DNA from: Nitrososphaerales archaeon
GTDB taxonomy: Archaea; Thermoproteota; Nitrososphaeria; Conexivisphaerales; UBA164
Length of the DNA stretch: 64,000 nt
Assembly: GCA_023256355.1 (NCBI GenBank)
Contig: JAGDXJ010000021.1
Location: 1,255 to 65,254, forward strand
Direction: 5' to 3'
In this document: piece by piece, positions 11,791 to 63,141 of the stretch
Layout of the letters: each line of letters starts with the position of its first letter
Position numbering within the stretch: position 1 is the stretch's first letter
Notes under the pieces: generated by a model
What the model saw: the letters and a program-made list of their open reading frames with translations, nothing else
The model's database searches: none
What the model was told of the DNA's origin: nothing
Program-made: the position numbers and the translations under genes

Positions 11791-12124
11791 GGGTTAGGGG
11801 GGAGAAGTCCCTTTCCGTAAGCTGTAGATAGCCCCTTATAGGTATGTTTTTAAAGCTTTCAACACGTTATCTTTACAGATTAATACCCAATCTGAAAAGA
11901 ATGCAAAGATCCTGCAGATCCTGGTCGGGGGAATACGTAATACCTCGCATAAGGTCAGCACTCAGACCAAGTGAAGTCAGCGATAATAAAGCTCTGCTTG
12001 TGGAACGTAAGCGAGATGCCTGTGGATGATCGTGCCAATATGATGGAATACCTGCTGAGTATCCCTCATGTGAAAGCGTATCGATAAACCGGGAAGCCCT
12101 GACAACAAGGTCATGGTAGCTCAC
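11791..12124 (+). ncRNA. Unclassified structured-RNA candidate, copy 1 of a two-member family (see 61883-62112)
   Basis: G+C-enriched intergenic segment with no credible ORF. It shares two conserved blocks with the second locus (11791-11840 and 12011-12124), including GGATGATC, TGCCAAT, ATGATGGAATA, GGGAAGCCCTG and GTCATG. There is a GNRA-capped hairpin GGGA-GAAG-UCCC. The strand is inferred from the upstream A/T box and the co-orientation of both copies. Confidence 0.5.
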
Positions 12125-12140
12125 AAGGCCATACAAGAAT

Positions 12141-52540: not shown

Positions 52541-52612
52541 TGGACCGGGGGGGACTTGAACCCCCGACCTCCCGCGTGCAAGGCGGGCGTTCTACCCCTG
52601 AACTACCGGCCC
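52541..52612 (-). tRNA. tRNA-Ala (anticodon UGC), no encoded CCA, no intron
   Basis: The reverse complement reads GGGCCGGTAGTTCAGGGGTAGAACGCCCGCCTTGCACGCGGGAGGTCGGGGGTTCAAGTCCCCCCCGGTCCA. This gives a cloverleaf with the G3:U70 Ala identity pair, anticodon loop CUUGCAC and T-arm GGGGG-UUCAAGU-CCCCC. Confidence 0.95.
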
Positions 52613-52619
52613 ATTTGTC

Positions 52620-52803
52620 TGGCTTATCAGTTTTCTTCATCCCTTTTGGTCAGTCCGCCCATCGTAAGACAAGCCATTAGACTGGGTATTTAATGTAGCA
52701 CTCCAACTTGTGGTTGGAGTTTCCCGGTTCATAGCCGTGCTTTGACGCACGATAATCCCCGGTCGTCTTGCCTGTATTTCGCAGGCAACACCATATCAGG
52801 CAA
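52620..52803 (-). ncRNA. Unclassified G+C-rich structured-RNA candidate immediately upstream of (possibly co-transcribed with) tRNA-Ala
   Basis: Sharp G+C enrichment in an AT-rich genome and no ORF. Perfect hairpins lie at 52768-52774/52782-52788 (7 bp), 52701-52707/52713-52719 (7 bp) and 52736-52740/52747-52751 (5 bp). TTATAAG on the minus strand at about 52822-52830 could be its TATA box. Confidence 0.5.
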
Positions 52804-61575: not shown

Positions 61576-61882
61576 TTATATGTCGCCTCTATATGCAATT
61601 TTTATTATAATAAAAACTCGCTTAAAAACTATTCTATATCGTGACATGATAATGATTAAATGAGCCAAACTACTACCGATGCAGGTATCCTGGTTATACC
61701 TTTATTAAACCTGAACCGATTGTAGAAAGTGAAGATGAGCTCTAGCATTGCGTTCAAATCATTAATATGAAGCTTTTTAGCTTTAATGTTGTTTGCGAAT
61801 ACTTTTGTCCTGCTTTTTAAAGGACTGAACCTCTGGATCTGGCTTACATCTTTGATGAACAGTTACTGCCGGCAACTTTTTT

Positions 61883-62112
61883 GGGTTAATGGGACGAAAG
61901 CCCCTTTCCGTTAGTTAAAGATAGCCCCTTACAAAGCCGATAAATTTACAGGGTTGACTAGAATATTTACTCAAACACGGCTTTGTCTGTGAAACGCTGG
62001 CGAGACACCGGATGATCATGCCAATGATATGATGGAATATTTGGTGATTATTATGTTAAAGCAAACCAGCGATTAATTGGGAAGCCCTGGCCGCAATGTC
62101 ATGATACTTCAC
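61883..62112 (+). ncRNA. Unclassified structured-RNA candidate, copy 2 of the two-member family (see 11791-12124)
   Basis: Block A (61883-61933) and block B (62000-62112) align with copy 1. The hairpin GGGAC-GAAA-G(C)CCC replaces GGGA-GAAG-UCCC of copy 1, so the stem and GNRA-type loop are preserved with changed sequence. The central variable part is about 100 nt shorter. Confidence 0.5.
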
Positions 62113-62189
62113 TAACGTTTGATTAATTTTTTCTAATAAATGCCGTTGTCAGCAGTTTCAATATAGATAAGTTTATACAGATTTTCGTA

Positions 62190-62500
62190 TCTGGATAACT
62201 CACCCGTGCATGGGCAGTATGGTGATGACAAAGACCCCAAGACCTCGGCTGAGCGAGGGGGACATGCACGCTAAGGAAGGGAGGCTGAAGATGAAGGGAG
62301 TTCCCCATGAAGGCTTCTCTGGTAACGGGAAGGCTTGTGAGCGGGTACTTCCTGACGGGGGCGGAGCGGAAGGACCCCGATGAACCCGCGAGGGTTTGCA
62401 TGATGTGAAGCCCAAGCCCTGCGGGGTATGCAAATATATGCCAGCGTATGCCTGCGCAAGGTAAAACCCTCTGGCCCTCTCTGCCTTAAATGGCGAAGCT
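62190..62500. ncRNA. G+C-rich, helix-rich island of unknown function (structured RNA candidate; strand unresolved)
   Basis: The strongest local G+C excess in the window. The only ORFs are Pro/Arg/Gly-rich reading-frame artefacts. Complementary segments lie at 62205-62212/62263-62270 (8 bp), 62243-62247/62254-62258, 62341-62346/62384-62389, 62390-62394/62467-62471 and 62395-62401/62428-62434 (7 bp). CUGA...GAUGA flanks a GGGG/CCCC stem (k-turn-like) at 62351-62383. Confidence 0.45.
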
Positions 62501-62592
62501 TCCAGTACTATATAAGGAGCTTTGCCCATTAATAACATAAAAATAAACAGCGGATGTGAAAAACCTTTATTCTTAAAAGCCAAATATATGAC

Positions 62593-63141
62593 GTGAGCTC
62601 GTTAACTCAAGAGGACGATAAGAAGAGATTTAAGGATCTAGGTATGGAAAAGTTAATTGAGCTTTTTATGAACAACGTAAAGACCGTATGGAGAGTAGAC
62701 GGACTTTATTTTCAGGGTATAGAAAAACGGTTCGGACAGGAAGCCGCCAGGGAAATAGATAGAGAAAGCTGGGAGTCCATAGCGAGGATGGAAGCAAAGG
62801 ATCTGAATAAGATTTTCAGGTATGATGGGAGCTCAGAGGACTTTACAAACATGCTTCTTAATACAAGCTGGGCCCTTTACCAGGAAGAGAAAAAAGTAGT
62901 TGAGAAAGAAGATGAAGTTGAGTTTTACGTTGTTCGCTGCAGGGTTCAGGAAGCAAGGATAAAGAAAGGGCTTGGGGTTTTCCCATGTAAAGAAGTTAGG
63001 TACAGCTACCTGAAAGCCTTCTCCGATGAGCTTGATAAGAACGTTGAAGCTGAAGTAATATCATGTCCCCCTGATGAAAAGAAACCGGATTACTGGTGTG
63101 GCTGGAGGTTCAAATTCAAAAACACTAAAAATTTTGAATGA
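62593..63141 (+). CDS. Hypothetical cytosolic protein (possibly DUF6125-like)
   Basis: ORF with GTG start. It is visibly richer in G+C than the core genes. The family assignment is from memory only. Confidence 0.4.
   Translation: MSSLTQEDDKKRFKDLGMEKLIELFMNNVKTVWRVDGLYFQGIEKRFGQEAAREIDRESWESIARMEAKDLNKIFRYDGSSEDFTNMLLNTSWALYQEEKKVVEKEDEVEFYVVRCRVQEARIKKGLGVFPCKEVRYSYLKAFSDELDKNVEAEVISCPPDEKKPDYWCGWRFKFKNTKNFE

Follow-up and report, generated by a model that had tools for sequence, protein, structure and literature searches.

A G+C-rich island in a Nitrososphaerales archaeon genome is very probably an internally deleted, decaying derivative of an IS607-family element

The G+C-rich island near the end of the 64,000-nucleotide stretch of Nitrososphaerales archaeon DNA analyzed here (the window) is very probably an internally deleted, non-autonomous derivative of the IS607 family of insertion sequences, and today mainly a decaying relic. 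The element is approximately 332 bp long (62138-62469, plus strand; 0.54 G+C), is protein-less, and was delimited by homology at both ends. This identification follows from a match to a profile of tnpB-linked copies, a tnpB remnant spread over two frames, a fixed right-end terminus, homology of the left end (LE), and a fold that is common to the family. The first-pass annotation had drawn the island at 62190-62500, which was the right region, but the true unit begins approximately 50 nt further to the left.

Composition, extent and parts of the element

The G+C content of 62200-62499, measured in 200-nt windows, was 0.585-0.605 compared to approximately 0.35 for the whole 64-kb window, and that of the segment as a whole was approximately 0.58-0.60. 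No other clear G+C peak was found in the window except for a tRNA gene (52541-52612). Thus, the island is the compositional outlier that the first-pass annotation had described. It is also non-coding, as had been proposed, since no Pfam match was obtained for the two minus-strand ORFs that were scanned or for the plus-strand ORFs (57 and 33 aa). The description of the island as helix-dense did not hold, because shuffled sequences of the same composition fold equally well. In the comparison with dinucleotide shuffles, the MFE z-score of the island was +0.24 for the plus strand and +1.28 for the minus strand, and that of 62262-62489 was -0.99. As the z-scores were non-significant on both strands, single-sequence folding energy is not decisive here. 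The G+C richness of the island is a trait of a transposon segment that encodes a tightly folded RNA, and not of the host genome. The equivalent 3' segment contained 0.52-0.62 G+C in every copy, with host flanks ranging from 0.38 to 0.64, and in intact elements this G+C-rich segment is tnpB tail and omega-RNA scaffold at once.

The LE (62138-62185, plus strand) consists of AAATGCCGTTGTCAGCAGTTTCAATATAGATAAG (62138-62172) followed by the TATA-like sequence TTTATA (62172-62177). Positions 62137-62169 were 88% identical to the LE of locus L035, which is separated by 177 nt from an intact tnpB downstream, and the same motif was found upstream of tnpA in L029, L011 and L023. The consensus of these full or tnpB-only elements (L035, L029, L011 and L023) was AAA[T/C]GCCGT.G...A.CAGTT[T/C]CAA.ATAGATA, followed by a TATA-like box. 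Part of the LE, GTCAGCAGTTTCA, is also common, without any change, to a short element in a Sulfolobales metagenome-assembled genome (L012). TTTATA is a putative promoter, as it lies where intact elements have their tnpA promoter. In the strain and species variants L001 and L005, homology to the window extends leftward only as far as 62142-62151. In the internal segment that follows (62186-62261, plus strand), 62199-62206 and 62246-62253 form an 8-bp inverted repeat, which is free of mismatches in L001 and L005 and has a single C-C mismatch in the window. Neither blastn-short nor tblastx detected significant similarity between this segment and full-length elements.

The tnpB remnant (62262-62460, plus strand) corresponds to approximately the last 70 codons of the gene, frameshifted into two frames and interrupted by premature stops. 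In tblastn searches, RLVSGYFLTGAERK-DPDEPAR (62331-62393) matched the TnpB tail, and LKMKGVPHE (from 62285) matched in another frame. The island was matched at E<=1e-2 by 71 of 120 TnpB homologues, none of which matched elsewhere in the window.

To delimit the right end, a profile was built without the window and L005, and exclusively from copies preceded by a tnpB reading frame. This profile of tnpB-linked copies gave a single match in the window with nhmmer, at 62286-62469 on the plus strand (E=2.6e-27), which reached the last profile position, and the profile of a second subfamily matched the window at E=5.9e-15. Conserved sequence ends at a fixed point, which is ...GGGTGAAACCC (GAAACCC) in one subfamily and ...CAGAACCC in another. 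The terminus of the window copy is ...GGTAAAACCC, with 62469 as its last base, so that family conservation stops with the AAAACCC at 62463-62469 (plus strand). Past the terminus, the flanks differ among distinct insertion sites, and flanks that recur represent one locus from different samples.

At the junctions ...TTTCTAAT|AAATGCCG... and ...AAAACCC|TCTGGCCC..., neither terminal inverted repeats nor a target-site duplication were found, in agreement with the description of the IS607 family (PMC6188088). Neither tnpA nor an intact tnpB (RuvC plus zinc ribbon) was found in the element or in the 64-kb window, and the missing serine-recombinase tnpA is expected of a non-autonomous derivative. The deletion would have left the LE with the tnpA promoter region, approximately 75 nt, some 70 codons of the tnpB tail and the right end.

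The element family and the conserved scaffold

A motif pointed out in the first-pass annotation was turned into a search pattern, CTGACGGGG N8-24 CCCCGATGAACCC, which matched 20 metagenome contigs and five species-representative genomes. Four of these genomes were archaeal, and the fifth match, in actinomycete coding sequence, was regarded as chance. In a Hadesarchaea contig (L011), a 425-aa ORF with the motif at its 3' end was found to encode TnpB, with a Cas12f1-like TNB domain (PF07282, 3.3e-12) in addition to OrfB_IS605. This ORF is preceded by a Resolvase-domain TnpA (1.1e-24), and insertion sequences of the IS607 family carry such a pair of genes. The window remnant most resembles the A-type copy of L029, a low-G+C contig of the same metagenome, whose TnpB fragment had 317 archaeal homologues at E<=1e-20. 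These homologues, many of them truncated, came from Conexivisphaerales, Marsarchaeota, Asgard archaea, Methanomethylicia and others. In a Conexivisphaera locus (L036), a TnpA with HTH and Resolvase domains adjoins a TnpB close to that of L029. No match to the element was found among viral contigs, plasmids and phages.

The ends of the window element are thus homologous to those of archaeal elements with Resolvase-type tnpA and tnpB, as in IS607, IS1535 and ISC1926. It differs from these members of the family in having no tnpA, in keeping only a frameshifted tail of tnpB, and in being approximately 332 bp long compared to approximately 1.9 kb. The archaeal insertion sequence ISC1733 is also an IS607 family member. 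It mobilizes in trans the ORF-less SMN1 of Sulfolobus islandicus, a 320-bp MITE (PMC3718332). By size and architecture, on which alone the two were compared, the window element is like SMN1 in its size class, in the absence of an ORF and in the need for a transposase in trans. The Sulfolobales element mentioned above (L012:3286-3560) is likewise short and without an intact gene; it has GTCAGCAGTTTCA in its LE, the same right-end motif and a CPECG zinc-knuckle remnant, and it may be a relative of SMN1. Internal-deletion derivatives were common in the TnpB family, as observed in L029 (oriented 1016-1863), protein P0190, L040:647-802 and L043:660-923. In some of them, the MerR-type HTH of TnpA is fused to the C-terminal part of TnpB, and others are isolated fragments of HTH or Resolvase.

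In archaeal TnpB elements, an omega RNA is located at the 3' end of tnpB, and the right end is conserved except for the 3' guide (PMC10640517). The guide of TnpB omega RNAs is the DNA just outside the right end (PMC10640517, PMC10055086). When the window was aligned to intact relatives, in which the tnpB ORF extends to approximately 12 nt before the right-end terminus, a homologue of the omega-RNA (reRNA) scaffold was found at 62295-62462 on the plus strand. It lies on the tnpB sense strand, overlaps the tnpB 3' end and ends at the right end. These features, together with a copy-specific guide and a conserved structure, are those of the omega RNAs of ISDra2 and Sulfolobus SisTnpB1 (PMC10640517, PMC8612924); unlike them, the window scaffold stands alone without tnpB and its fold is partly damaged. 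RAGATH-18 is used by some bacterial IS607 TnpBs (PMC11061315), but the window scaffold matched neither RAGATH-18 nor any other Rfam family. In an intact element, the tnpB tail thus serves also as the scaffold of the TnpB-guiding omega RNA, and the guide comes from the DNA just past the right end. By analogy with TnpB omega RNAs, the flank TCTGGCCCTCTCTGCCTTAA (62470-62489, plus strand) would be the guide of the window copy if the scaffold were transcribed. No second target for this guide was found in the window at up to three mismatches. The pairing of the guide with 62272-62284 in the MFE structure was discarded as chance, as it was not preserved in L005.

To derive the fold of the scaffold, 15 sequences were aligned, four of them from more diverse intact loci (L037, L040, L042 and L043). 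The consensus contained six helices on the plus strand with a total of 33 pairs, 13 of which showed changes on both sides. In window coordinates, these helices are H1 (62295-62299 with 62349-62353), H2 (62301-62308 with 62337-62345), H3 (62359-62362 with 62410-62413), H4 (62366-62368 with a strand starting at 62404), H5 (62372-62378 with 62392-62397) and H6 (62416-62422 with 62456-62462). Paired cells amounted to 96.3% compared to 85.7% in shuffled alignments, and the covariation score was 0.390 compared to 0.186, with none of 500 shuffles reaching any of five measures. In slid controls, the covariation score was at most 0.083. The clearest covariation was found in H5, where GAA/UUC, CGA/UCG, AGA/UCU and CUC/GAG replace one another. 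The window copy formed 29 of the 33 pairs, the lowest number among the 15 sequences, compared to 31-33 in the other copies, and in L005 most of H5 was lost.

These findings show that a structured RNA, as the first-pass annotation had supposed, was the correct reading for the sequence family, and that its fold is supported by covariation. Conserved helices do exist, although they are not those that had been proposed there. In particular, the CUGA/GGGG...CCCC/GAUGA k-turn was not sustained: relatives replace CCCC by AACC or GACC while GGGG is unchanged, and the stem is not maintained in L037, L040, L042 and L043. GGGC pairs instead with GCCC at 62410, approximately 50 nt away (H3), and the CCCC strand covaries with its downstream partner in H5. 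A k-turn or box C/D hairpin was therefore rejected once the more diverse relatives had been aligned.

The TnpB residues on both sides of a conserved D-E motif were observed to shift in step with H5 in L037, L040, L042, L043 and L029 (62372-62397 in the window). The tail variants linked to H5 were K-VP-DEP-VR-GL, K-GT-DEL-VR-FL and K-AT-DEL-VR-SL. These sequence comparisons suggest that the omega-RNA structure constrains the TnpB tail that overlaps it.

Distribution, rearrangement and neighborhood

The gene downstream of the island encodes a DUF6125 protein (62593-63141, plus strand), whose closest database relative is a protein of a Nitrososphaeria archaeon metagenome-assembled genome (L005) with 96% identity. 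The island was present upstream of DUF6125 in this genome and in L001, a contig 99.7% identical to the window. In L006, with a DUF6125 protein of 85% identity, neither of the two candidate syntenic positions contained it, and it was likewise missing beside the more distant DUF6125 genes of L007-L009. The first-pass annotation had named, as a finding that would speak against its own reading, a piece of foreign high-G+C DNA absent from close relatives. This is largely what was found, namely a mobile insertion of foreign composition that is present only in the closest relatives, L001 and L005, and absent from L006. The element family is multi-copy across metagenomes, and the window variant was found at one locus in three assemblies.

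The element was frequently associated with assembly breaks. Contig L002 starts at 62275 and contigs L003 and L004 start at 62421, all within the element, and a run of N interrupts it in L005. Among matches for which the fetched stretch was the whole contig, the element was cut by the contig end in 10 of 16. Such cuts and the N run are expected of a repeat, and these repeat-like contig breaks were counted, together with the lineage-restricted presence, in favor of a mobile element.

Compared to L005, the element in the window was 91% identical with indels, while identity was 98.5% in the flanks and 98.9% at third codon positions. This excess divergence is more than relaxed constraint alone would give, and points to exchange between copies, chimeric assembly of repeats, or both; part of it could come from chimeric metagenome assembly of repeats. 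The L001 contig does not differ from the window between 62221 and 64000. It carries six clustered, L005-like substitutions at 62162-62220, and its left flank, with a YjeF_N gene, is wholly different from that of the window. The sequences compared would be explained most simply by recombination between two copies, at a point inside the element, which gave the window lineage another left flank. The mosaic of SNPs and the switch of flanks suggest that a second copy of the window variant exists. To the left of the element synteny is lost, with CbiQ and PAC2 genes in the window and YjeF_N in L001 and L005, and in L006 (3194-5002) the DUF6125 block is inverted relative to YjeF_N. Rearrangements have repeatedly broken the sequence at this position (approximately 62138-62220 of the window).

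A second non-coding family, approximately 140-290 nt long, was also observed in multiple copies. Its copies in the window are at 11832-12127 (plus strand), 61974-62112 (plus strand) and 52703-52796 (minus strand), and copies outside the window are at L005:1662-1950, L001:1-128 and L020:3905-4044 (minus strand). The conserved core is GCGAGACGCC..GGATGATC..ATGATGGAAT..GCGATGAACCGGGAAGCCCTGA, followed by a 3' hairpin with compensatory changes (GCCCUGAC/GUCAGGGU compared to ACUCCAAC/GUUGGAGU), and conservation stops at ..GTAGTTCAC, with variable sequence beyond. Three copies lie just upstream of genes. The copy at 61974-62112 immediately precedes the island, with a run of six T after it. It was considered as a part of the island element and rejected, because it resembles no TnpB and is a member of this separate family. 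No Rfam match and no TnpB similarity were obtained for the family as a whole, which could consist of PATE/MITE-like elements or of small-RNA genes. The tRNA gene at 52541-52612 (minus strand), approximately 90 nt from a copy of this second repeat, has a G+C content of 0.71 in the 0.35 G+C window, a contrast that suggests a thermophilic host.

Alternative readings, present state and meaning

The size (approximately 300 nt) and the G+C richness of the island, in a low-G+C and probably thermophile genome, are the only features that speak for a divergent housekeeping RNA. The first-pass annotation had considered SRP RNA and RNase P RNA in this sense and had suggested a cmscan check that included the group II intron, a fragment of which would be a further reading of the same kind. 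Against Rfam 15 at gathering thresholds, nothing but tRNA was found in the whole window. At E<=10, the region 61800-62800 gave weak C/D-like matches (E 0.8-5, far short of gathering) and other chance matches, with neither an intron nor SRP RNA or RNase P RNA among them, and no Rfam match was obtained for four related loci. The blank Rfam searches, the absence of the island from a relative with an 85% identical neighboring protein, and its homology to transposon ends and tnpB refute the housekeeping-RNA reading, to which we assign almost no probability. Nor is the island a new class of RNA, which had been raised as a possibility; it consists of the tnpB-3'/omega-RNA/right-end portion and the LE of an IS607-family element.

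The orientation proposed earlier was also revised. A TATA element at 62508-62516 had been taken as a possible minus-strand promoter, but the TATA-like element, at 62509-62516 (plus strand) and outside the transposon derivative, lies upstream of the plus-strand DUF6125 gene. The minus-strand ORFs and promoter were rejected, as the ORFs have no domain matches and homology sets the plus strand; no evidence for a minus-strand RNA was found at the island. The island could instead serve DUF6125 as a domesticated cis-acting leader or as an independent regulatory RNA, in agreement with its position directly upstream on the same strand, with the retention of this arrangement in L001 and L005, and with the absence of any run of at least five T between 62469 and the gene. 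This is nevertheless highly improbable. No counterpart occurs at the DUF6125 genes of L006-L009, the gene has its own TATA-like element at 62509-62516, and the element has changed faster than the flanking intergenic DNA (91% compared to 96.7% identity). The separate TATA-like element is conserved in L005 save for an adjacent 2-nt deletion. The start of DUF6125 is ambiguous: the listed ORF begins with GTG at 62593, but the region matched by Pfam starts only at residue 15, and there is an ATG at 62644 with a purine-rich stretch in front of it.

The remaining alternative is that the element is a live, protein-less guide-RNA gene, in which the LE promoter would drive an omega RNA (62295-62469 plus the guide at 62470-62489) for use in trans by a TnpB encoded elsewhere. 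Such a TnpB might, for example, re-cut the empty site and thereby keep the mini-element in place. The TATA-like element of the LE has been retained and is conserved in L001 and L005, the scaffold still forms 29 of its 33 pairs, and the right-end terminus is intact. Related tnpB genes occur on contigs of similar G+C content in the same metagenomes (L018 and L029). According to one report, omega RNA is processed by TnpB from its own transcript (PMC10278001). A precedent of sorts exists in the PATEs of the IS200/IS605 group, which are minimal protein-less derivatives that keep their ends and often an omega RNA (PMC10055086), and the omega RNAs that PATEs often encode need use in trans (PMC10055086). 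The window element resembles PATEs in being protein-less, in having kept its ends and in the omega RNA that they often keep, but PATEs have a Y1-transposase origin and subterminal hairpins, whereas the window element comes from serine-recombinase (IS607-type) elements. On the other side, the window scaffold has the most pairing defects among the 15 sequences, most of H5 is lost in L005, and divergence is far faster than at neutral flanking sites. The window contains no tnpB, and the nearest one in the same samples (L029) is deleted and frameshifted. On balance, a live guide-RNA gene is unlikely, though it deserves some weight. That the deletion fused the LE promoter to the omega-RNA scaffold, and so created a self-contained protein-less guide-RNA gene for TnpB in trans, is likewise doubtful.

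In our judgement, the element is therefore most likely a relic rather than still used, even though most of its pairs and the TATA-like sequence of the LE remain, and the window copy appears to have lost its function. Three observations weigh against the identification, namely that the 64-kb window contains no tnpA or intact tnpB as a partner for mobility or RNA use, that the variant was found at a single locus, and that the internal segment (62186-62261) could not be traced to full-length elements. The visible genomic effect of the relic would be that of a recombination substrate, with its left flank reshuffled.

G+C-rich, ORF-less islands in low-G+C thermophile genomes are usually taken as structural RNA genes. 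The main value of the present analysis is a correction in this respect, as the island is transposon debris whose G+C richness is due to the omega-RNA scaffold. As such, it is a genomic fossil of an ordinary kind. The analysis also provides a covariation-supported omega-RNA fold for a widespread archaeal family of IS607-type TnpB for which Rfam has no model, and it shows that relics of this kind are found where recombination has occurred and where assemblies break in these metagenome-assembled genomes. None of these points would surprise a specialist on insertion sequences or TnpB. If the doubtful fusion into a guide-RNA gene were true, the element would be an archaeal, IS607-derived counterpart of the omega-RNA-bearing PATEs in a thermophilic Nitrososphaeria host, and the TnpB family would also be notable for C-terminal residues that change in step with an overlapping RNA helix.
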